Source: an uncultured Candidatus Peribacteria bacterium (GTDB taxonomy: Bacteria; Patescibacteriota; Gracilibacteria; UBA4473). From it: a stretch of 34,140 nucleotides of DNA. The notes under the pieces are model-generated. The model searched no databases and had not been told where the DNA came from. It saw nothing but the letters and a program-made list of their open reading frames with translations. The position numbers and the translations under genes are program-made. The stretch lies in contig CAZVBV010000002.1 in assembly GCA_964625805.1 (NCBI GenBank), positions 1 to 34,140 of the forward strand, written 5' to 3'. Of the stretch, positions 3,651 to 23,059 are shown one piece after another (within the stretch, counting starts at the first letter, position 1; each line of letters starts with the position of its first letter).

Positions 3651-3812
3651 ATGAAAAAAGCTTTCATCAGAATGTTCACTAACAATTCCGGTCAAACAAT
3701 GACCGAATATGCCCTCATTTTGGCAGTTGTCGCCGTGGTCGTAGTTGGCACAGTTACACTCCTCGGAAATGATATCCAGGCCATATTCCAAAGTGTTGTT
3801 GATGCCGTCTAA
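3651..3812 (+). CDS. flp: Flp/Fap-family pilin
   Basis: MKKAFIRMFTNNSGQTMTEYALILAVVAVVVVG carries the Flp processing motif G/xTxxEY followed by a hydrophobic helix. I prefer the start at ATG 3651 to the upstream ATG 3615. Confidence 0.8.
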   Translation: MKKAFIRMFTNNSGQTMTEYALILAVVAVVVVGTVTLLGNDIQAIFQSVVDAV

Positions 3813-4128
3813 CCTGTATCATCATGTTCCGTGTTCGGTCGCAACCCATTGGATAGAGAGAGTATTGGGGCTTATGGGGAAAAAACCTCCCTTTCGTCCA
3901 CTATTTATCCCTCAGTGTTGGGGGGTTCATACCTATTTCCTCCGCGCCCCGATTTCTCTTATCTGGCTCGATCCTTTTTCTCAGATTGTTCGCATTGATC
4001 GTCATGTCCATCCGTGGAAAACAAGAACCTGCAAACAAGCGGTGAGTGTTTTGGAATTCCAAGATGATTGCTTTCCTGATGATATTCAACCGAAAGATAC
4101 TATTCATATTTTCCCTCTCAAAAAATGA
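3802..4128 (+). CDS. DUF192-like protein
   Basis: ERVLGLMGKK...PLFIPQCWGVHTYFLRAPISLIWLD...IVRIDRHVHPW...AVSVLEF resembles the DUF192 (COG1430) pattern. The start is uncertain (3745, 3769 or 3802). Its stop forms an ATGA overlap with the next gene. Confidence 0.5.
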   Translation: MPSNLYHHVPCSVATHWIERVLGLMGKKPPFRPLFIPQCWGVHTYFLRAPISLIWLDPFSQIVRIDRHVHPWKTRTCKQAVSVLEFQDDCFPDDIQPKDTIHIFPLKK

Positions 4129-4559
4129 AAAAACTCTGGCAGGACCAACACGGTCAAGCTTTGGGGGAAACAGCACTTCTGCTCCCCCTTCTTTTTCTTA
4201 TTGTTTTTGGGTTTTTACAATTGGGACTCGCTATTGCGGACAAACAAAAGCTTTTATATGTGACCAATTACGCCGTACAAGTCGGGTCTCTTTCTAATAA
4301 TGATTTAAAAATTAGTGGTGCTATTGAAGAATTTTATGATGGAAATGACATCACATTTCAAATTGAAAGTCATGATGGAGAAACGGGAAACGTTATTCTC
4401 AATACCAATCGAAAATACAAAGATATTCTGACAGTCTCCATGCAAAAACCGTTTTTTCTCACGATCCCATTTTTGGATGTGGCGGTAAATGACACTCAAA
4501 CCACAAGCTCTGCAAAAGTTCTCTGTACCAATCTCACCCCTCCCTACACATGCGAATAG
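4125..4559 (+). CDS. TadE-like pseudopilin/pilus assembly protein
   Basis: The N-terminus GQALGETALLLPLLFLIVFGFLQLG matches the TadE_N motif (G-x-x-x-E followed by a hydrophobic helix). Confidence 0.7.
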   Translation: MKKLWQDQHGQALGETALLLPLLFLIVFGFLQLGLAIADKQKLLYVTNYAVQVGSLSNNDLKISGAIEEFYDGNDITFQIESHDGETGNVILNTNRKYKDILTVSMQKPFFLTIPFLDVAVNDTQTTSSAKVLCTNLTPPYTCE

Positions 4560-5098
4560 TGCGAAATGAAGATGGATTCGTACTCCCATTTATAGCCATT
4601 CTTTTGATGGCTCTCTTTCTTGTGGGCGCGATTATTCTTGATGTTGGGAGTTTTTATCTTCGTCATGGAGAACTTCAGCCCTTGGCGAAACAAAGTGCAA
4701 ATGCGGGGATTCTGAAATTTGTAGACGCAATGGAAGGAAAGGCGGAGCAAAATAAATCTGCCTTCTGTAATGTCGAAGAACCCCCTGCCGTGTGTAGTTC
4801 CGAAGATATGTTTGATTTTCTTACGAGCGGAGAAATTGTTGACCTCGTCAGTTCCCCAACCGTTCAAGAGGCCGTTTCTGATGCAAGCATTGCCTTTTTA
4901 ACCATGTACGATCCCCAGTTAATCATTGGAAATGAAAATATACAGATAACCTTTCCCTATGAATACGAAGGCGTTTCCGAACTTCAAATACAAGTGATTA
5001 TAAGTGATGCTCCCCAGCGATTTCTCGAAGGAATTTTCCCTGTCACCGATGATGAAATTCAGGTGCATGCCATTTCATATATCGCGACTCCATTTTGA
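4550..5098 (+). CDS. TadG/Tad_N-like pilus assembly protein
   Basis: The N-terminus DGFVLPFIAILLMALFLVGAIILDVGSFYLRHGELQPLAKQSANAG matches the putative Flp pilus-assembly TadE/G-like N-terminal pattern. Overlaps the previous gene by 10 nt. Confidence 0.6.
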   Translation: MRIVRNEDGFVLPFIAILLMALFLVGAIILDVGSFYLRHGELQPLAKQSANAGILKFVDAMEGKAEQNKSAFCNVEEPPAVCSSEDMFDFLTSGEIVDLVSSPTVQEAVSDASIAFLTMYDPQLIIGNENIQITFPYEYEGVSELQIQVIISDAPQRFLEGIFPVTDDEIQVHAISYIATPF

Positions 5099-5131
5099 CA
5101 CCCTCCACCCCTTGCTATGAAAGGATTTCTA

Positions 5132-5166
5132 TGGTATACTTAAGAGAAAGGTTAACTTTCTCTTAA
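5132..5166 (+). promoter_or_regulatory. Extended -10 (TGgTATACT) followed by an 11-bp-arm inverted repeat that reaches the start codon
   Basis: TGGTATACT lies at 5132-5140. TTAAGAGAAAG (5140-5150), GTTAA, then CTTTCTCTTAA (5156-5166). The final A of the right arm is the A of ATG 5166. Confidence 0.4.
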
Positions 5167-5819
5167 TGAAAACAATGCTAAAAACCGTTACCGACATTCT
5201 TTCCCAACATAAGAAAGAACTTATCTTTTGGGGGACAATTACCCTCGTTATTCTTGCTGTTGCAAGCACGGCACTCTTTCTCTCGTCTCAGGTATTACCT
5301 GACTACGCAGAAGAAGAGGTGTTTCATTCCTCTGCTCCACGAATTGAAGTAGGCGAAAATTTGCCAACCGTACCCGTGCATTCTCCGGCTCAATATGTTG
5401 GAAAAGCAAATGATGCACTTGGAACGGTAAAATCATATTTCTCTGCATACAATAAACAGGATTTTACAAACGCTTGTCGTTTACTCGATCCAGCAAACTG
5501 TAATCCCGAAAGTCCATACGCTGTTAATCGTCTCTCTGACGAATACAACAAAATGTCGAACGGGTATGAAAACTGGAACTTTTGGATCCCAGAAGGAAAC
5601 GAGGATTTCCACAGTGATGTTGTGTGTGTGAAATATTCATACCACTACAACGATGACGTGAAGAACAAACGAGTGCATGAACGACTCAGTTTCTACGTAC
5701 GAAGAGATGAAAATGGAAATGACCGAATCTACAGTCGAGTTTGTGAAAAGAAATTCGCACAAGATTCTGGAGACATGCCCTGTCCAATTCTTTCACGAAG
5801 AGATTTTTGTTTGAACTAA
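5166..5819 (+). CDS. Membrane-anchored hypothetical protein (Cys-rich ectodomain)
   Basis: 217 aa with an N-terminal TM helix (LIFWGTITLVILAVASTALFL). No domain recognised with confidence. Followed by a strong terminator. Confidence 0.6.
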   Translation: MKTMLKTVTDILSQHKKELIFWGTITLVILAVASTALFLSSQVLPDYAEEEVFHSSAPRIEVGENLPTVPVHSPAQYVGKANDALGTVKSYFSAYNKQDFTNACRLLDPANCNPESPYAVNRLSDEYNKMSNGYENWNFWIPEGNEDFHSDVVCVKYSYHYNDDVKNKRVHERLSFYVRRDENGNDRIYSRVCEKKFAQDSGDMPCPILSRRDFCLN

Positions 5820-5844
5820 GGATTCAGTAAACCATTTAAGCGGA

Positions 5845-5877
5845 AAGGCCATCACAGTGTGATGGCCTTTTTTTTTA
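5845..5877 (+). terminator. Rho-independent terminator
   Basis: GGCCATCAC (5847-5855), AGT loop, GTGATGGCC (5859-5867), followed by a T9 run. Confidence 0.8.
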
Positions 5878-5910
5878 CTTGATTCAAAAACTTACTACAA
5901 TCATCGCACA

Positions 5911-6654
5911 ATGACTCTTACTTATATTTTACTGTTCACGTTCCTCGGAAGTATTGGATCAGTTCTAATCGCTTCGCTCTTTTTATTGTGCAAAGGAAAT
6001 ACACAAAAAAAACTTGTGCCAATCCTCATTACCTTCGCCACGGGGGCGTTGCTTGGAAGTGCCTTTTTGGGACTTATTCCCGAAAGTTTGGAACATTTAT
6101 CTGCAGATAAAGTACTCCCAACTGTGCTTGGAGGAATTCTCTTTTTCTTCTTTCTAGAAAAAATTATCCGTGTGCACCACTGTCATAATGTTGATTGTAA
6201 TTCCCATGATAAAAGTCTTGGAAAGATGATTTTTGTTGGCGACGCACTTCATAATTTCATTGATGGACTTATGATCGCTGGAGCATTTTTAGTATCGATC
6301 CCTGCCGGAATCATGGTGGCAGTTGCTGTTATTATTCATGAAATTCCTCAAGAACTTGGTGATTTTGGTATCTTTCTTCACAGTGGATATTCCAAACGAA
6401 AAGCGATGGTGATGAATCTTCTCTCAAGTGCTACCGCTTTTATAGGAGCTGGTGTTGGGTATATTGCTTTTCAAAAAGCGCATGAATTTGTTCCTTATGT
6501 AATGGCCTTTGCAGCTGCTAGTTTCATTTATATTGCACTTGCAGATCTCTCACCAGAACTCCATAAACAAACCAAACTTTCTCATTCACTTCAGCAAATA
6601 TTCCTCCTTCTTCTTGGAGTAGGAATCATCGCATTAGTAGGACATCTTCACTAA
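5911..6654 (+). CDS. ZIP family (ZupT-like) divalent metal transporter
   Basis: Multi-TM protein with the motifs HNFIDGLMIAGAF and HEIPQELGDFGI, plus a His-rich loop HHCHNVDCNSHD. Confidence 0.85.
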   Translation: MTLTYILLFTFLGSIGSVLIASLFLLCKGNTQKKLVPILITFATGALLGSAFLGLIPESLEHLSADKVLPTVLGGILFFFFLEKIIRVHHCHNVDCNSHDKSLGKMIFVGDALHNFIDGLMIAGAFLVSIPAGIMVAVAVIIHEIPQELGDFGIFLHSGYSKRKAMVMNLLSSATAFIGAGVGYIAFQKAHEFVPYVMAFAAASFIYIALADLSPELHKQTKLSHSLQQIFLLLLGVGIIALVGHLH

Positions 6655-15460: not shown

Positions 15461-15521
15461 AGATACGTATCCTTTGGGATACGTATCTTAATGGCTCCGG
15501 ACCGCTCTGGGGTCCGGAGCC
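15461..15521. repeat. Left compound hairpin terminal repeat (H1+H2)
   Basis: H1 is AGATACGTATCC-TTTG-GGATACGTATCT (15461-15488). H2 is GGCTCCGGACC-GCTCTGG-GGTCCGGAGCC (15493-15521). Both stems are perfect. Confidence 0.9.
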
Positions 15522-15526
15522 TAGTT

Positions 15527-15778
15527 TTATTTCTCCCACTCTATTTTCCAATCTTTTTCAGCAAAAAATTTAGGAATGTCTGATTCTTGTTCTACCCAAT
15601 TATTGAAAAGGTATTCATATTTCTCATCTTCCTTTAGTTCTTCAATATTTATATAAACACCTCCATCTGGTTCTTCATCTTTTATAAGAACCATTTTCCA
15701 TCCTGTTATATCACGTTGTACTCCATTTATGGTTTCCGTTCCTTTTTTAACGATGCCGGTATTAAGCGTGGAATACAT
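15527..15778 (-). CDS. Small acidic protein tightly coupled to the giant gene (immunity-like, inferred)
   Basis: 83 aa, rich in E and D, with no signal peptide or TM helix. Its ATG lies 2 nt after the giant gene's TAA (TAATCATG). Confidence 0.65.
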   Translation of the reverse strand: MYSTLNTGIVKKGTETINGVQRDITGWKMVLIKDEEPDGGVYINIEELKEDEKYEYLFNNWVEQESDIPKFFAEKDWKIEWEK

Positions 15779-15780
15779 GA

Positions 15781-18700
15781 TTATGGAATGAATTTTACAT
15801 GATTGATTATAGAAGAACTAGTTGCATTTGGGGAATCAAATAGCTCGAAATGAACATGTGGATTATCTCCATAAAGAGATTCTGGATCCATTCGAAACCG
15901 TCTTAAGCCATCTGCACTTCTGTAACCATGTGGTCCATTTTGTACATACCCTTTTCCCAAAAAACTCTCCGTTGCCTCTAGTACTTCATCTGTATTTAAC
16001 CAATGTTGACTTGTGCTCATTTGCCCTGGTTCCAACTTCAACGTTTCTGCAATAACATCATCTATTTTCCTATAATCAATAACCTTCCCACCCGCTCTCA
16101 CTACATCATCCATAATCATCGTCTTCCCTCCGATTGTCACCCCTGCCAACTTTGGTTGTGGAATAAATTTATGTAATGCGACTGCAATATCATCTACCCA
16201 TGCTGTAAGTTTTCCCGCCTTCCCAATCTTTCCTATTGGAATAAAACTTAATATCACCGCAGCAACAATCGCCCCTTTCTCTCTGTCGTCCGCGTTTGCA
16301 ATACTGGCTTGAATACTTTCCCATGCATTATCAATTGTTGTTTTTCCTTCGATAAGAACCTCTGGTACATTTTCCTTCAAATACTCTGTCATCCCTACGG
16401 GATCAGTAAGAAGTGAAAGCATGAGTTGCTTCTTCATTTGATCAAACTTCACAACTACTTTTGCAATTTCAATCCATGTGAGTGGATTGAGGAGACTTAA
16501 AATTCCTTCTACTTCTGATTTCACTCCATCAAGTACCCCTAGTCCAAATTTCAGTGGAGAACCTACTGAAAGTAATTTCTGAAGACTTATTTGTGTTTCT
16601 ATTTCAAATTCAGCCTCCCTTCCAATGTTCAATACTTCTGCTCTCTTCGCCTCCACAATCGCCTCGGCCTCGGCAATGATCTCTGGGGTCTCCGCAATTT
16701 CTTCTACCGTTGCCACAACCGAAATATGAACTGGCTCAGGAATTTCTACTTCTGGAACAGGTGAGACTGCCTCCACCTGCTGGCTCGCCAGAGACACTTT
16801 CACTTGACCAAGAACCGTCGCAGGTTGCGTTGTAATCGCCACTCCGTTGCTGTCGGTACGAATTGTTGTCTGAGCAATTCCTGCGTATTCTGCCCCCACC
16901 ACAGCACCTGTGTCACGATAGACGGCCGTGTAGGTTCCGTTGTCATTTCGTATGTACGTAACTGGATCCTTTGTGCTCAAGCTTCCATCTGAAACCCCCT
17001 TGGTAATGCCATCAAAATATTTTGTCTTTTGAGCGATTCCTTCTGGTGTCTCTGAGAAATACATGTGACGCACCATCGGTGCAACCATTATTGATTCATC
17101 AAATGCGAGTGGATTCTTTGCGGTGCGAACACTTGCCGCTAAATTGTTCTGTTGAATGATGATCTGACTGTCTCGCACATTTGAAAAGTGCGTTATGAGT
17201 TCTGTCGGATCGACTGCGGTAAGATCCTCTCCAAGAAAAGCCTTTATTTCCGTTTCGACGATCGTAGCTGTAAGTTTGTCTTTTTGTCGTTCTTCAACTG
17301 TTTTATTGAGCCATTGCGCAGAAATAAATGAGGAAGCTGTTTGCGTCGCCACTTCTTTTTCCAGTGTTTCAATTTGCTCTGTAATAACTTTTCTATATTC
17401 CTCATCTTCTTGTTGGAGACTTCCAAGTCTCGCTCCAAGAGCTTTCATATTTTCTCGGTGCAAAAGAGGATGTTGCCTATAAAATCCCTGCCATCCATTG
17501 TAAGCATTAATCGCCTCCTGGTGAGCATTTTTAGCAAGCCCACGAAGCGTGGAAATAATTCTTTCATCATACGGAACATAATCTCTCATGATATATTGCG
17601 CATATCGTGCATATTTTTGCCCCCAATAATCCCCACTCTGGCCAATTCTTTGTTTCGATCGACCCCAATCATCTTGTACGACCCAACTATTGTTTTGAAC
17701 TCCTGTACGTTCGAGATATTCCTCAAATGTATAAGCAATCGGCGTTTCTATTTTCTCTTTTGTTTGTTGTATTTCTGCATCGTACGGAGAAGGCTGTTCG
17801 AGCATTTCTTTCAAAGCTGATATCTCACTTTGAATCGTGTCTGCATTGAGAACTGTTGCTTTTTGTACTTCAAAAAACTTGCTCTTCGGTCCTGAATTTT
17901 CAAGTCCCATCAAATATTGAATCACTTGTTTTTTCGCCGGATCCTCTTTTCTTTTTTGTGCATAATTTATTCGATTCTGTTTTTGTTTATCATTAAAATT
18001 CTTTCTTTTTTCTTCTCTTATCTTTTTTGTACACGCTATTTTTTTAAAAATACTTCCGGTTCGATATGCTTTAATTTGTTTACGCGTTTCGTCATATTTT
18101 TTCTGGTAGTACGCAATGGATGCATCCATATTGTGTCGTGCTCGGATACTGAGCCAATAATCCCTTCCGTTCGCGTAAGGCGTCCAGTATTCTCGAATAC
18201 CCGTTATCATCTTTTGATGCTCTGCCGAAAGTTCATACAATTGTTTATCAAAAACACGTTCAATTTCTTCTGAATACACTTCCGCATGTGCAATGACTGC
18301 GTTTTTCGAAGGGTCCATTTTCTTTTCCAATTCCACGAGTTCATTCCCCACGTTTACAATTTTTGATTGAATTGTCGCAATTAATTTATCGCATTCTTTT
18401 TTTTGTGCTCCAATGGTGGCATCAAAAGTAAGTTTTGCTGCAACGAGTGCGGCATTGAGATAATTTATTTCTTCTTCTTTTTCAAATACTGGTTTGTAGA
18501 GTTCGTAGAATTCCTGGGTCACCGTCTCTACGGTCTCGGGAGATGGTGGTGTTAGTGGTTCTTCATAAGGAAAAATTTCGTGAATTGGGGTCACGTAATC
18601 AATCTCTTCAATAAATTCTTGGCGGTATGTAACTTGACGGACCGTTTCATCAATCATTTCTTTTTTCTCTTTAAAAGAGTTTGTGTATTTTTCAAAGACC

Positions 18701-20058
18701 GTCGTAAGTACTTTCTTTTGGGGGGCAAGAATCTGATCAAGTTCCTTTACTTTTCGAGCATAAAAATCACTTCGTGTTTTAGCGACATTTTGATATTGAT
18801 AATTGTAAACTGCGTAACGAACAAGATCGTTATAAAGTGCATCTGCAGCTCTCTTAATATTTTCTATTTCTACTTGGCGCTCTGCCTCGAATTTCACATT
18901 CCAATCTTCTCTCACCATGGCTAAAATTTCCTGTGTTTTTTCTGGATGATTCAACAATCTATCTTCAGCTGTCGGTAGTTGTTCATCAAAAAAACTGGTT
19001 AATCCTTTTTCTGTTAGAAGTTCTCCTGAAAACTGTTTCCATCCATTTTTAAGTCGAACCGTTTCTTCTGTCATAACCATCTCTATGACTTCTTTTTCCA
19101 AAAATTCCGGGAGATCTTCTGGGAAAAATTTCCCTTGTGACAATTCTTGAATTTCTTCTTTCGAAAGCTCTGCTAAAACGCTTTGAAATGTCGATTCGAA
19201 TTCCGCTTTTTGTTTCGCTTGGCGAATAGAAATATAACTTTGAACCTGTGAAAGAAGTTCCCGTGCTTTGTTTTTGAACGTATTTTCATTTTCCAATTTG
19301 CTACTCGCTTTCTGCCAAAATTTCCATGTCTTGGGATACCAATCTGGAAATTCATATACTCTTGAATCACTTCTTACGGCACCATAAAAGGAACTATAGT
19401 TCTCATTATTTGTTTCGAATTTCTCTTTATAAAAAATATCAAGCTCCACTTCCCATTCAAGCGGTTCCCCCTCTTCTCTTTTTTTCCACCACGCTTGATA
19501 CATCACAAGAAGAACTCCCGCTGCAATTGGCAAACCTCGTTCATAGGCAAATGTTGACCAACTTACATCTGTCCCCATCGCTCGCCCATCTGCCAACATA
19601 TTTTCTTCTGTGGAAGAAAAATGTTTTTCAAAAAAGGATTCCATTTGCTCCGCGTCACCGGTTAGAAGTTCTGACTGGTTTTGAATTTTTTCTCGATACC
19701 AAAAATCATACACCTTCTGAAATGTGGTGCCGCTCAATGCTAATTTTTTACTAAACTGATTCCAGTCTTCTGGCTTTTTTAAAATAAGCCCGGCCGATGT
19801 TTCTCCATACAATCCCAAAAGTTCAAAATTATTTCTCAATAATGATTGAACGTCACTCCTTTCGAGGATGGTTTGTATTGTCGCCTCATCGAGTTCTTCA
19901 AATTGTGTAGGCGTAATAGTTCCAATCTGAATAATGTCATTTAATCGCTCCTGAGGAAGAACGGGATCAAATGCATAAACAGAATATTCCGCCATCACGA
20001 GTAAATACGTGACAACGAGGATTGTGAGGAATTTTTTATTTTTCCGAGAAAGTCTCAT
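15781..20058 (-). CDS. Giant secreted coiled-coil-rich protein with a toxin-like C-terminal tail
   Basis: About 1425 aa from ATG 20058 (the ORF track starts at TTG 20070). Signal peptide MRLSRKNKKFLTILVVTYLLVMAEYSVYA/FD. Long K/E/Q-rich helical body. A P/E/V-rich linker (SPVPEVEIPEPV). The C-terminal roughly 110 aa end in GYRSADGLRRFRMDPESLYGDNPHVHFELFD. Confidence 0.85.
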   Translation of the reverse strand: MRLSRKNKKFLTILVVTYLLVMAEYSVYAFDPVLPQERLNDIIQIGTITPTQFEELDEATIQTILERSDVQSLLRNNFELLGLYGETSAGLILKKPEDWNQFSKKLALSGTTFQKVYDFWYREKIQNQSELLTGDAEQMESFFEKHFSSTEENMLADGRAMGTDVSWSTFAYERGLPIAAGVLLVMYQAWWKKREEGEPLEWEVELDIFYKEKFETNNENYSSFYGAVRSDSRVYEFPDWYPKTWKFWQKASSKLENENTFKNKARELLSQVQSYISIRQAKQKAEFESTFQSVLAELSKEEIQELSQGKFFPEDLPEFLEKEVIEMVMTEETVRLKNGWKQFSGELLTEKGLTSFFDEQLPTAEDRLLNHPEKTQEILAMVREDWNVKFEAERQVEIENIKRAADALYNDLVRYAVYNYQYQNVAKTRSDFYARKVKELDQILAPQKKVLTTVFEKYTNSFKEKKEMIDETVRQVTYRQEFIEEIDYVTPIHEIFPYEEPLTPPSPETVETVTQEFYELYKPVFEKEEEINYLNAALVAAKLTFDATIGAQKKECDKLIATIQSKIVNVGNELVELEKKMDPSKNAVIAHAEVYSEEIERVFDKQLYELSAEHQKMITGIREYWTPYANGRDYWLSIRARHNMDASIAYYQKKYDETRKQIKAYRTGSIFKKIACTKKIREEKRKNFNDKQKQNRINYAQKRKEDPAKKQVIQYLMGLENSGPKSKFFEVQKATVLNADTIQSEISALKEMLEQPSPYDAEIQQTKEKIETPIAYTFEEYLERTGVQNNSWVVQDDWGRSKQRIGQSGDYWGQKYARYAQYIMRDYVPYDERIISTLRGLAKNAHQEAINAYNGWQGFYRQHPLLHRENMKALGARLGSLQQEDEEYRKVITEQIETLEKEVATQTASSFISAQWLNKTVEERQKDKLTATIVETEIKAFLGEDLTAVDPTELITHFSNVRDSQIIIQQNNLAASVRTAKNPLAFDESIMVAPMVRHMYFSETPEGIAQKTKYFDGITKGVSDGSLSTKDPVTYIRNDNGTYTAVYRDTGAVVGAEYAGIAQTTIRTDSNGVAITTQPATVLGQVKVSLASQQVEAVSPVPEVEIPEPVHISVVATVEEIAETPEIIAEAEAIVEAKRAEVLNIGREAEFEIETQISLQKLLSVGSPLKFGLGVLDGVKSEVEGILSLLNPLTWIEIAKVVVKFDQMKKQLMLSLLTDPVGMTEYLKENVPEVLIEGKTTIDNAWESIQASIANADDREKGAIVAAVILSFIPIGKIGKAGKLTAWVDDIAVALHKFIPQPKLAGVTIGGKTMIMDDVVRAGGKVIDYRKIDDVIAETLKLEPGQMSTSQHWLNTDEVLEATESFLGKGYVQNGPHGYRSADGLRRFRMDPESLYGDNPHVHFELFDSPNATSSSIINHVKFIP

Positions 20059-20265: not shown

Positions 20266-20279
20266 AACTCTGTTCTATT

Positions 20280-20593
20280 TGGTGGGTTGGGTGGGGATAC
20301 TTGTCCCGCTCTGCGGGACTGCGTGACGTCGTCGCTTCACTCCTTGTATCGAACCCAATCGCTTCGCGATTATCTGGGTTCTCGCTCCAATACAAAAGAC
20401 AAAAAACTGTAGAGGCAAGCTCTACACTTTTTTGTCTGGTGGGTTGGGTGGGGATACTTGTCCCGCTCTGCGGGACTGCGTGACGTCGTCGCTTCACTCC
20501 TTGTATCGAACCCAATCGCTTCGCGATTATCTGGGTTCTCGCTCCAATACAAAAGACAAAAAACTGTAGAGGCAAGCTCTACACTTTTTTGTC
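20280..20593 (-). repeat. Two tandem 157-bp units (identical by eye), each beginning on the plus strand with the 17-nt tRNA-Lys 3' end
   Basis: Units span 20280-20436 and 20437-20593. Each starts TGGTGGGTTGGGTGGGG, the same 17 nt that start the tRNA-Lys gene at 20594. Each unit also holds several hairpins, including GTCCCGC-TCT-GCGGGAC, and a terminator-like stem. Confidence 0.9.
20556..20590 (-). terminator. Bidirectional rho-independent terminator just downstream of tRNA-Lys (repeated in the second unit at about 20399-20433)
   Basis: A-run, TGTAGAG (20565-20571), GCAAG, CTCTACA (20577-20583), T-run. On the minus strand a U-run follows the stem. Confidence 0.6.
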
Positions 20594-20668
20594 TGGTGGG
20601 TTGGGTGGGGCTCGAACCCACGGCCAAAAGCTTAAAAGGCTTCTGCTCTACCACTGAGCTACCAACCC
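20594..20668 (-). tRNA. tRNA-Lys (anticodon UUU), CCA encoded
   Basis: Manual cloverleaf: GGGTTGG TA GCTC AGTGGTA GAGC A GAAGC CTTTTAA GCTTT TGGCC GTGGG TTCGAGC CCCAC CCAACCC A CCA (75 nt). Confidence 0.9.
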
Positions 20669-21008: not shown

Positions 21009-21091
21009 GTGCAACGAAAAGAACAATAAGCGCGAAGATTCTATAAATCAAGAGTTTTTTGTCAAAAGGATTTGAGAAAAACCGCTTTTTC

Positions 21092-21100
21092 TGGTACAAT
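21092..21100 (+). promoter_or_regulatory. Extended -10 TGgTACAAT, 7 nt upstream of ATG 21108
   Basis: A possible -35, TTGAGA, lies 17 nt upstream (21072-21077). Confidence 0.45.
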
Positions 21101-21107
21101 ACAAGGA

Positions 21108-22088
21108 ATGAAAAAGATATTTCTATCGATTCTCTGTGGACTTTTCTTAACAACGGGTATGAGTGTTGTTTCTGCAACTGATAATCTATTGCCACTTGAT
21201 GGAACGAATTACGACAAGGTTATGACCGATGATAATATTCTTGGTAAGATTATCACTATTCAGGACAACGACAGTAAGACTAATGAGTCTTTATCTAAGA
21301 CTGACGATACTTTGAAAGCTATATTTAGAGGAAAGAAAGATGGCGGCAAAGGTCTTATCTTTAGAATAAATATGGTTTTAGGGGCTATTGCTATTCTTTT
21401 CTTGTCTATATTGGGACTCAAATTTGTCGTGTCCCAAGGAGATGAAGACCATATGACAAAATACAAAACACAGTTTGGATACATAATTATGGGCTTGGCT
21501 ATTATTTCTGCAGCTGAGTTTGTGGCTTTTGATTTTCTTGATCCTTCGGGGGGAAACGATATTTTACAAAGCTCGGACTTTACAGATGCATTTTATAAAA
21601 AAATAAATCAAATTAAACTTTTTATTGAAATCCTTGTGGTGGGAGTTGTTCTCGTAAAAATGCTTATGTCTGGATACGACCTTATTGTTCGAAGTGAACA
21701 AGATGAAGCGATTGCTAAAGAAAAAACCTTCTTTCAATCTTTTCTTTTTGGAACGATCCTTATCTTACTCGCAGAAGTTATTGCTCGCATTTTGAGTGGA
21801 AGTAAAACAAAGGGGAATGATGGGGCTGTCGATCTAGAAAGCATTGGTACAGAAGTTTCAGAAGGTGCTAAAGCTGGGATTTCTGAAATCGTTGGTCTTG
21901 TCGATTTCTCACTTTCGTTCCTCGCTGTTATGTCCGTTATTATGCTTATACTAGCAAGTACTTACTATGTAATGAGTTTTGGGAATGAAGAGCAAATGGG
22001 TCGTGCAAAACGAATTGTGGTTTCCTGTGTCATTGGTGCTATTGTGGCGGTATCCTCGTTTACTATTGCTCGTTTTGTTATTGGATGA
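21108..22088 (+). CDS. Secreted/membrane protein with three VirB2/T4SS-pilin-like hairpin modules
   Basis: Signal peptide MKKIFLSILCGLFLTTGMSVVSA/TD. Three repeats of hydrophobic helix, acidic loop ending in K/R, hydrophobic helix: ...KFVVSQGDEDHMTKYKTQF..., ...LIVRSEQDEAIAKEKTFF..., ...YVMSFGNEEQMGRAKRIV... I prefer ATG 21108. Confidence 0.8.
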   Translation: MKKIFLSILCGLFLTTGMSVVSATDNLLPLDGTNYDKVMTDDNILGKIITIQDNDSKTNESLSKTDDTLKAIFRGKKDGGKGLIFRINMVLGAIAILFLSILGLKFVVSQGDEDHMTKYKTQFGYIIMGLAIISAAEFVAFDFLDPSGGNDILQSSDFTDAFYKKINQIKLFIEILVVGVVLVKMLMSGYDLIVRSEQDEAIAKEKTFFQSFLFGTILILLAEVIARILSGSKTKGNDGAVDLESIGTEVSEGAKAGISEIVGLVDFSLSFLAVMSVIMLILASTYYVMSFGNEEQMGRAKRIVVSCVIGAIVAVSSFTIARFVIG

Positions 22089-23059
22089 AAAAATTTCTTT
22101 TAATCGGATTACTTTCTCTTTCGTTCCTCTTTATTGGAGGGAATACTTTGTACGCCGTAGATGCTCCTACAACAATCGATATTTTTGGGCGAGGGGTAGA
22201 AGATTTTGATCTGTCTAAACAAACGGATCTTTTTGACTACACAATTTATAAAAAACCTGATGGCACTGGTGAGAAGGAAGCCCTCACTGGAGAATACTCT
22301 TTTCGATTCATGGTCGAGAATGTAATTAATTACATTAAGAAACTTCTTGTCCCTATTACAATCCTTTTTATTGTGTGGGCAGGTACGACCCTTATTCTTT
22401 CCTCTGGGGAAGAAGAAGAATTTGATCGAAGAAAACGCATGGTATATGCCGCCTTTTTCGGGTGGATGATTTTACTGACAGCAGTTGTCTTGGTGGATTA
22501 TGTTTTCTTTGGGCAAACAGGGGAGATCTTCAGGGATACAACAACTGCAACTGTTGAGACGCTTGCTCAACGAGGAGTAACCGAACTCCAAGGACTCTTT
22601 AAATATTTAGTCACTTTTGCTGTAGCGGTCGGAGTCGCTTTTGTTGTCTTTTCTGCACTTAAATTAATCTTAGCTGGAGGAGAAGACGAAGCGCAGATTT
22701 CAAATATAAAGAAACGAATAGTTTATACCGCTGGAGGGATGGCGCTTTTGGTTTCTGCAGAAAAACTTGTTTCTTTTTTCTCAACAAAAGTTCGAAATGG
22801 AAGTGATGTCATGATGCTTTCAACTCCTGATATTCCCGACACAATCCGATTTATTGTAGATTGGGGAAATTTCCTCCTGGGACTCATTGGAACAATATCC
22901 GTGCTAATGCTTGTATGGGGAGGTGTTCGTCTTATCGCGAACTTCGGAGTCGATGAACAAGCTATCGATAACGCAAAAAAAACTATTATGGCTGCCGCCA
23001 TTGGTCTCGTTCTCGCCTTCTCGGCGTGGACTTTGATGTGGTTTTTCCTCGTTCACTAA
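22085..23059 (+). CDS. Second secreted/membrane protein with three VirB2/T4SS-pilin-like modules
   Basis: ATGA overlap with the previous gene. Signal peptide MKKFLLIGLLSLSFLFIGGNTLYA/VD. Module loops are LILSSGEEEEFDRRKRMV, LILAGGEDEAQISNIKKRIV and LIANFGVDEQAIDNAKKTIM, each flanked by hydrophobic helices. Confidence 0.8.
   Translation: MKKFLLIGLLSLSFLFIGGNTLYAVDAPTTIDIFGRGVEDFDLSKQTDLFDYTIYKKPDGTGEKEALTGEYSFRFMVENVINYIKKLLVPITILFIVWAGTTLILSSGEEEEFDRRKRMVYAAFFGWMILLTAVVLVDYVFFGQTGEIFRDTTTATVETLAQRGVTELQGLFKYLVTFAVAVGVAFVVFSALKLILAGGEDEAQISNIKKRIVYTAGGMALLVSAEKLVSFFSTKVRNGSDVMMLSTPDIPDTIRFIVDWGNFLLGLIGTISVLMLVWGGVRLIANFGVDEQAIDNAKKTIMAAAIGLVLAFSAWTLMWFFLVH

Follow-up and report, generated by a model that had tools for sequence, protein, structure and literature searches.

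MafB of Neisseria exemplifies a described class of polymorphic toxins that depend on Sec and carry N-terminal domains specific to a lineage (Zhang et al., 2012, Biol Direct 7:18; Jamet and Nassif, 2015). UmbC of Streptomyces possesses a twin-arginine translocation (TAT) signal, eight ALF repeats that form a ring and the partners UmbA and UmbB (Zhao et al., 2024, Nature 629:165). RHS-type polymorphic toxins have also been mentioned in passing for a Saccharibacteria genome, and therefore the presence of polymorphic toxins in small-genome bacteria is not new in itself. In this study, we analyzed a stretch of 34,140 nucleotides from an uncultured Candidatus Peribacteria bacterium (contig CAZVBV010000002.1 of assembly GCA_964625805.1; hereafter the window), with a focus on a giant open reading frame (ORF) and a small ORF located directly downstream. 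A previous reading of the letters (hereafter the original prediction) had described a giant secreted protein with a toxin-like tail, tightly coupled to a small acidic ORF. Both ORFs were indeed present on the minus strand, separated by 2 bases (TAA-TC-ATG):

15781-20058, minus strand: giant ORF encoding the large protein, 1425 amino acids (aa) counted from the ATG
15527-15778, minus strand: small ORF, the putative cognate immunity gene, 83 aa, isoelectric point (pI) 4.5, no signal peptide

Our results suggested that this locus very probably encodes a polymorphic toxin-immunity system whose carrier is specific to the lineage. It combines several features of such systems in the sense of Zhang et al. 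(2012): a predicted trafficking signal, C-terminal variation with a sharp junction, reuse of the toxin across scaffolds and a co-varying downstream immunity gene.

We compared the locus with the closest described systems. First, the nearest described class is the one that includes MafB, with which the locus shares a (predicted) signal peptide, a strongly conserved and lineage-restricted N-terminal region, a variable C-terminal toxin and an immunity gene directly downstream. However, the window protein has neither MAFB-N/DUF1020 nor any other Pfam domain, it is much longer owing to a helical stalk of approximately 800 residues, and its gene was seen only once per genome, at a conserved chromosomal position, whereas MafB genes form multi-copy islands that contain orphan cassettes. 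Second, Rhs/YD-repeat, CdiA and Tc-type carriers bear a homologous toxin domain together with the same immunity family, whose gene occupies the equivalent position. Unlike these carriers, the window protein contains no RHS repeats, PAAR, TPS/FHA, SpvB/TcdB, PT-HINT or LXG domains that could be recognized by Pfam or NCBIfam; the carrier is all-helical, and no more than six relatives of it were present among 5.8 billion protein clusters. Third, the window protein resembles UmbC in being (by prediction) exported and in having a long helical stalk, a C-terminal polymorphic toxin and an immunity gene, but its signal is of the Sec type with no twin-arginine motif in MRLSRKNKK, it has no repeats, its scaffold had no Foldseek match, and its gene neighbors are GlnA, phosphatidylserine-decarboxylase-like, tRNA and pilin genes. 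UmbC is a functional analogue with a helical stalk, and its defining features are absent here. Finally, the best structural match to the tail was the contact-dependent toxin of the CdiA-CT/CdiI pair of E. coli A0 34/86 (PDB 5T86), which also has a cognate immunity protein. No sequence relationship between that toxin and the window tail was observed, and the 5T86-type immunity protein is larger (six strands and four helices, with SciX residue numbers that reach at least 138, in our reading of a preprint) than the proteins of about 75 aa found here. A likeness to barnase-barstar belongs to one scaffold homologue described below (P0005, with PF00545 in the place of the tail and a barstar-like ORF start) and not to the window itself.

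Support came first from the relatives of the scaffold, which were sought in the 5.8 billion protein clusters and by a repeat search by word index, in which the scaffold alignment served as the query. Both searches agreed on six clusters only, with 45-88% identity. The window-type tail was common to P0001-P0004, and three types of C-terminus plus one truncation were seen in total. In P0005, the C-terminal ~290 residues diverged (18-25% identity in the pre-toxin region and tail), and the protein ended in a barnase-type ribonuclease (RNase) domain (PF00545; 28.2 bits vs. a cutoff of 24). The next ORF overlapped the stop codon (ATGA) and began with MNKYIFNFQDIKNVEDFYNLLE, but only its first 22 residues lay on the contig. 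This start is suggestive of barstar, although 22 aa are too short to score and had no Pfam match. P0029 was 83% identical to the window protein up to RAGGKIV and only 17.6% identical across an unrelated 98-aa tail. DNA similarity (84.6% over 566 nucleotides) stopped at the same junction, and different ORFs of 63 and 132 aa followed. In P0006, which was represented by 18 contigs, the protein stopped just before the tail and no small ORF was present. The layout of a polymorphic toxin that had been proposed earlier, including alternative C-termini paired with different downstream small ORFs (P0005 and P0029), was thus recovered among homologues of the scaffold. A metagenome scan with the pre-toxin region yielded five loci and no further C-terminal type.

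The cassette itself also appeared to be mobile. When P0002 (locus L009) was compared with window positions 15527-16686, the tail and immunity gene were 88-94% identical, with a nonsynonymous divergence (dN) of ~0.05, whereas the adjacent pre-toxin region was only 46-55% identical, with a dN of 0.40. This mosaic pattern therefore suggests that the tail-immunity cassette has been exchanged between lineages. Between the window and its close relatives, the ratio of nonsynonymous to synonymous divergence (dN/dS) was 0.07-0.13 for the tail and 0.08-0.10 for the 83-aa ORF; this signature of purifying selection indicates that both genes are real.

A profile of the last 143 residues of the giant protein was used in an exhaustive search of 1.84 billion representative proteins. 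At E <= 1e-3, 662 of them were matched, of which 195 remained at E <= 1e-10. Among the 150 matches listed, the alignments covered profile positions ~45-142 in proteins of 95-4670 aa, and the domain ended 1-5 residues from the C-terminus in most cases and within 27 residues in all. The long members that were scanned carried RHS repeats with PAAR and DUF6531, SpvB/TcdB with FG-GAP, DUF637 (CdiA-type), DUF6443, PT-HINT or PT-TG. Occurrence of the same ~100-aa domain on such carriers argues that the tail is a toxin module, as had been predicted, and not a structural or adhesin domain. Moreover, the domain boundary deduced from the family matches (~residue 1327) coincided with the recombination junction of P0029.

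The family consensus reads DDVIxETL..GNxTS...L..DEALEAGE.FLG.GY.EIG..GSGVFRS.DGLRQFRxD..SL.G.H.P..PHVHxE...NNHxP. In an alignment of 145 sequences, E1338, S1350, R1389, D1391, S1394, H1401, H1403, E1405, N1419 and H1420 were conserved in 93-100% of members. The original prediction had let the protein end at ELFD, which was incorrect: the protein runs 17 aa further and includes the family-wide conserved N1419-H1420. It had also been unable to place the tail in a named toxin family, and this was borne out in the two libraries that we searched, since no Pfam-A or NCBIfam match was obtained for members of the family. The tail and the small ORF gave noise only when scanned against Pfam, NCBIfam and PADLOC, neither a sequence nor a profile search of the PDB matched the tail or its family to a solved structure, and a copy of the domain on a RefSeq plasmid is annotated as a hypothetical protein. 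The HxHxE and NNH motifs had no match in Zhang et al. (2012). The domain may nevertheless be one of the families of that study that was never deposited in Pfam, or may already bear a name in the literature.

The third line of evidence was the linkage between the toxin domain and the 83-aa family. Within the scaffold family, the 83-aa ORF was found in all five tail-bearing loci (the window, L002, L008, L009 and L092/L093); it was absent from the tail-less P0006 locus, and other small ORFs followed the two other tail types. Identity fell to 29-30% between clades, with G-W, G-G and three Trp residues invariant. We then scanned one genome per species using eight closer toxin sequences as queries, which gave 80 toxin-domain loci from Proteobacteria, Actinobacteria, Planctomycetes, Chlamydiae, Bacteroidetes, Peregrinibacteria and others. 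In 76 of these loci, the ORF that directly follows the toxin domain matched an immunity profile built from the four 83-aa sequences, with scores of up to 43 bits. The ORF start lay between approximately -23 and +161 nucleotides from the toxin stop, and nearly all of these ORFs lay within 50 nucleotides and were 65-93 aa long (median length of the matching ORFs 75.5 aa, median pI 4.3). As a control, 1,687 other ORFs of 55-110 aa from the same loci gave only six matches, none of them independent: four were longer start variants of the same ORFs and two were extra copies of the family. Thus, the toxin/immunity-like pairing suggested at first held well beyond the window. None of the members that we read had an N-terminal hydrophobic leader, which, by the logic of Zhang et al. 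(2012), points to a cytoplasmic toxin target. Searches of the PDB with the immunity alignment, by sequence or profile, gave no real match.

Three variations were seen within the immunity family. A Nostoc genome contained two tandem copies (L059, 4313-4774), a Waddliaceae genome had an extra copy 2.4 kb downstream (L068, 6567-6800), and a Peregrinibacteria genome encoded a 190-aa version with a C-terminal extension (L089, 784-1356).

Taken at the level of sequence comparison, these analyses showed modular C-terminal swapping, reuse of the toxin domain on many known toxin carriers and a near-obligate linkage to the 83-aa family. The giant protein that carries the window cassette was divided as follows:

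19972-20058, minus strand: predicted Sec-type signal peptide, residues 1-29, with predicted cleavage between VYA and FD
19459-19971, minus strand: lineage-specific conserved N-terminal region, residues 30-200
16999-19458, minus strand: long alpha-helical body, residues 201-1020, K/E/Q-rich
16687-16998, minus strand: small beta-hairpin (residues 1033-1047) followed by a T/V/A-rich and P/E/V-rich region, as modeled by AlphaFold2
16078-16686, minus strand: putative pre-toxin region, residues 1125-1327, helical and hydrophobic/Gly-rich
15781-16077, minus strand: putative C-terminal toxin domain and stop codon, residues 1328-1425

An alternative TTG start located 4 codons upstream of the ATG would give a protein of 1429 aa; we took the ATG as the start because all six homologues begin at the position equivalent to MRLSRK. 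The sequence landmarks quoted in the original prediction were all in place (SPVPEVEIPEPV at residue 1099, GLGVLDGVKSE at 1172, SFIPIGKIGKAGK at 1271, GYRSADGL at 1378 and PHVHFELFD at 1400). The Sec signal peptide that it had noted was also recognized, by a rule of thumb based on charge, hydropathy and the V-x-A rule: the sequence consists of the positively charged n-region MRLSRKNKK, the hydrophobic core FLTILVVTYLLVMA with a Kyte-Doolittle peak of 1.76, and EYSVYA with a V-x-A cleavage motif before FD, and it was kept in six of six homologues. The N-terminal ~200 residues were the best-conserved part of the protein (62-74% identity in distant homologues vs. 35-50% in the body), and residues 30-200 had no match in Pfam or NCBIfam. 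Likewise, no Pfam, NCBIfam or PADLOC match above noise was obtained with the full-length protein.

With regard to the body, the AlphaFold2 model of residues 1-1200 contained a near-continuous helix to approximately residue 1020, in which single helices were 45-59 residues long. Heptad periodicity was modestly in excess (51% vs. 34 +/- 6% in shuffled sequences, a crude test), and no internal repeats were detected in the giant protein. Therefore, of the long coiled-coil body proposed at first, the long helical stalk was supported and the coiled coil only partly so. A Foldseek search of the PDB with the 1200-residue scaffold model returned only generic long-helix proteins with E > 0.5. Approximately 165 residues of the body were missing from P0004 and P0006 (window residues ~318-480; alignment columns ~320-480), so that stalk length varies between lineages, and deletions were also present in the hairpin/linker region (16687-16998) of P0004-P0006. 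Residues 1048-1124, which comprise the T/V/A-rich and P/E/V-rich sequence, had no regular predicted structure, with low confidence. The pre-toxin region showed Kyte-Doolittle peaks of 1.46 and 1.77 and closed with the junction motif DDVVRAGGKVI, and the local motif RAGGK(I/V) was present at the toxin boundary. No Pfam match was found in residues 1167-1425 even at E <= 10; among the pre-toxin and processing domains, PT-TG, PT-HINT, VENN and DPxGL were all undetected there.

Several observations weigh against the interpretation of the locus as a polymorphic toxin-immunity system, or against parts of it, and have to be considered together with the alternatives to which they relate. Two of the three alternative C-termini were located on short contigs (1.7 and 4.6 kb), neither a processing site nor a secretion partner was found for the giant protein, and the AlphaFold2 model of the scaffold was of low confidence (mean predicted local distance difference test score, pLDDT, 49.8, with values of 75-88 in patches only). 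The activity of the toxin, the state of the window copy and the position of the protein relative to the membrane are discussed in turn.

The AlphaFold2 model of the toxin domain had a pLDDT of ~90 and consisted of a helix, a strand, a helix and four strands, in that order. The best Foldseek match in the PDB was 5t86_A (probability 0.91, 95 aligned columns, 14% identity), a contact-dependent growth inhibition (CDI) toxin from E. coli A0 34/86 that was treated as a BECR fold in a 2026 preprint. The scores of this match were weak (E = 0.027, TM 0.34/0.43), and therefore the assignment of RNase activity is a lead only; a comparison of the tail with viral structures by Foldseek was uninformative. 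A metal-independent RNase is our leading guess, although we hold it with less than even confidence, because the best fold match is a BECR-fold CDI toxin and because Arg, Asp, Glu and His residues are conserved. On the other hand, the four conserved His residues together with Glu and Asp could equally bind metal. The pair might then be as described but with a metal-dependent hydrolase, such as a DNase, a peptidase or another enzyme, in place of a BECR-type RNase. We regard this as the most serious of the alternatives, if still rather unlikely. The near-invariant residues (in G-x-H, H-x-H-x-E, N-N-H and R-x-D) would suit a metal site, and the only fold match is a weak one with no solved structure matched by sequence, but that top match is nevertheless a toxin described as a BECR fold, the order of secondary-structure elements in our own reading of the model does not fit HNH, JAB or M23 folds, and a cytoplasmic acidic immunity protein is usual for immunity to nucleases. 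An M23/LAS peptidase, to which PHLHFE (cf. PHVHFE) might point, was dropped on the reasoning that the domain fits such an enzyme neither in the order of its conserved residues nor in its predicted secondary structure; JAB and HNH were dropped on the same grounds.

The second alternative concerns the window copy itself. At residue 1399 (codon 15862-15864), the window toxin has Asn, whereas 99% of the 145 aligned members have His in the G-x-H motif, and the toxins of the window clade also have deletions of 3 and 4 residues; P0003 and P0004 retain His at this position. The activity of the window toxin may consequently be altered or reduced. It might even be a decaying or repurposed toxin that was inactivated by the loss of His, with the immunity gene kept to resist the toxins of relatives, and the complete loss of the tail in one related lineage (P0006) would agree with this. 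However, the low dN/dS of the tail held inside the Asn-bearing clade, so that the domain appears to be still constrained and, we argue, still works. In addition, every other conserved residue was retained, the ORF was intact and the coupling of the two genes was kept in three members of the clade. Decay of the window copy is in our opinion improbable.

Third, the giant protein might not be displayed outside the cell. Residues 175-194 form a moderately hydrophobic, nearly invariant helix (GLPIAAGVLLVMYQAWWKK) that is directly followed by KKREE and could be a membrane span, which would leave the body in the cytoplasm. In that case, the first hydrophobic segment and this helix would form a membrane hairpin with the 1230-residue C-terminal part inside the cell, and the toxin would be released by another route (the neighboring pilin-type machinery or lysis) or would act within the cell. 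The near-invariance of the helix GLPIAAGVLLVMYQAWW, its flanks of ER and KKREE, which obey the positive-inside rule, and the two adjoining T4SS_pilin genes, whose arrangement is syntenic in relatives, are in favor of such a topology. However, the Kyte-Doolittle peak of the helix is 1.12, below the usual threshold for a membrane span and well below the 1.76 of the signal peptide, and Pro, Gly, Gln and Tyr occur within the segment. Transcription of the pilin genes is divergent, with tRNA genes in between, and a class of Sec-dependent polymorphic toxins whose N-terminal domains are lineage-specific has been described (Zhang et al., 2012). We dropped a firm call of a second transmembrane helix at 175-194 as its hydropathy was too low, and kept the hairpin as an alternative that we rate marginally below decay of the toxin. 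Finally, an ordinary surface or adhesin protein followed by an unrelated small gene, with no toxin function at all, is extremely improbable: the lack of a Pfam or NCBIfam match to any part and a long helical body typical of surface fibrils would suit it, but the tail is common to RHS/PAAR, Tc and CdiA-type toxins, barnase takes the place of the tail in one scaffold homologue and the small-ORF family is linked in 76 of 80 genomes.

Returning to a polymorphic toxin-immunity system on a lineage-specific carrier, we infer that the system would include export, surface display, entry into a target, RNase chemistry and 1:1 neutralization. The giant protein would be exported through Sec and anchored or assembled at the cell surface by its conserved N-terminal region. 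The helical stalk and the flexible linker would then present a replaceable C-terminal cassette, composed of the hydrophobic pre-toxin segment and the ~100-aa toxin domain. On contact with another cell, the cassette would be delivered to the cytoplasm of the target, and the hydrophobic Gly-rich pre-toxin region might aid membrane crossing, as an analogy with the entry domains of CdiA-CT and with PT-TG regions suggests. There, the toxin would most likely cleave RNA, using the conserved Arg/Asp, His-x-His-x-Glu and Asn-His residues, if the guess of a BECR-like and metal-independent enzyme is right. The small acidic protein would bind and block the toxin in the cytoplasm of the producer, thereby protecting the producer and its kin.

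We also analyzed the genomic setting of the locus. Its neighbors were chromosomal housekeeping genes, including MutS, a TrmB-type regulator, GlnA, a phosphatidylserine-decarboxylase-like gene, tRNA-Lys, tRNA-Ala, two T4SS_pilin genes, MutY and FtsK. The order in relatives was FtsK, MutY, two pilin genes, the giant gene, the 83-aa ORF, decarboxylase, GlnA, TrmB and MutS, on contigs of up to 743 kb and with one copy of the giant gene seen per genome. Because relatives carry it at the same chromosomal position, the giant gene is a stable resident of a small clade. One further feature was found downstream of the immunity gene:

15493-15521: GC-rich hairpin between the convergent immunity and phosphatidylserine-decarboxylase-like genes, with a perfect 11-bp stem (9 G-C pairs)

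A run of T residues follows this hairpin on the plus strand only, and the element is a possible terminator by match to the consensus.

On the other side of the giant gene, a pair of neighboring genes (21072-23059) codes for multi-pass membrane proteins in which Pfam recognized T4SS_pilin (PF18895) and TrbC domains; both are oriented divergently to the toxin gene, and their synteny with it is kept in relatives. Between tRNA-Lys (20594-20668, minus strand) and the giant gene, a 157-nucleotide unit is repeated in tandem at 20267-20610, with two full copies (97% identity) and the beginning of a third. Each copy opens with 30 nucleotides that repeat the 3' end of tRNA-Lys, and the repeats look like the att-type partial tRNA duplications of an integrating element. 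Genes resembling those of mobile elements were also observed next to the locus in relatives. Beside the truncated scaffold P0006, recF and a Y1_Tnp-type transposase-like gene occupied the place of the small ORF (L005, 9240-10930), and ORFs resembling IS200/Y1-type and IS1595-type transposases, as judged by eye from their translations, followed the immunity gene in L092/L093 (L092, ~3700-6000).

What is new here, as judged by sequence searches, is that the carrier is an orphan family of six clusters, and that both the widespread toxin family and its immunity family are absent from the curated libraries searched (Pfam-A and NCBIfam). It is quite conceivable, though somewhat short of probable, that the helical scaffold represents an undescribed delivery vehicle for polymorphic toxins in a small and possibly episymbiotic clade with reduced genomes, that payload and antidote form a large, uncatalogued family crossing phyla, and that the chemistry, with its four His residues, Glu, Arg and Asp, differs from any characterized toxin mechanism. 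The toxin family comprises 662 clusters (50% identity), with members in Pseudomonas, Streptomyces, Chlamydiae, Planctomycetes and others. A definition of the toxin-immunity pair would help to annotate Rhs, CDI and Tc effectors better in many genomes. Beyond the six clusters, no relative of the carrier was detected, and the carrier therefore may be a new way of presenting toxins at the cell surface. The locus provides a candidate weapon with a clear antidote in small-genome and probably cell-attached bacteria, for which little is known about how they fight their hosts or rivals.

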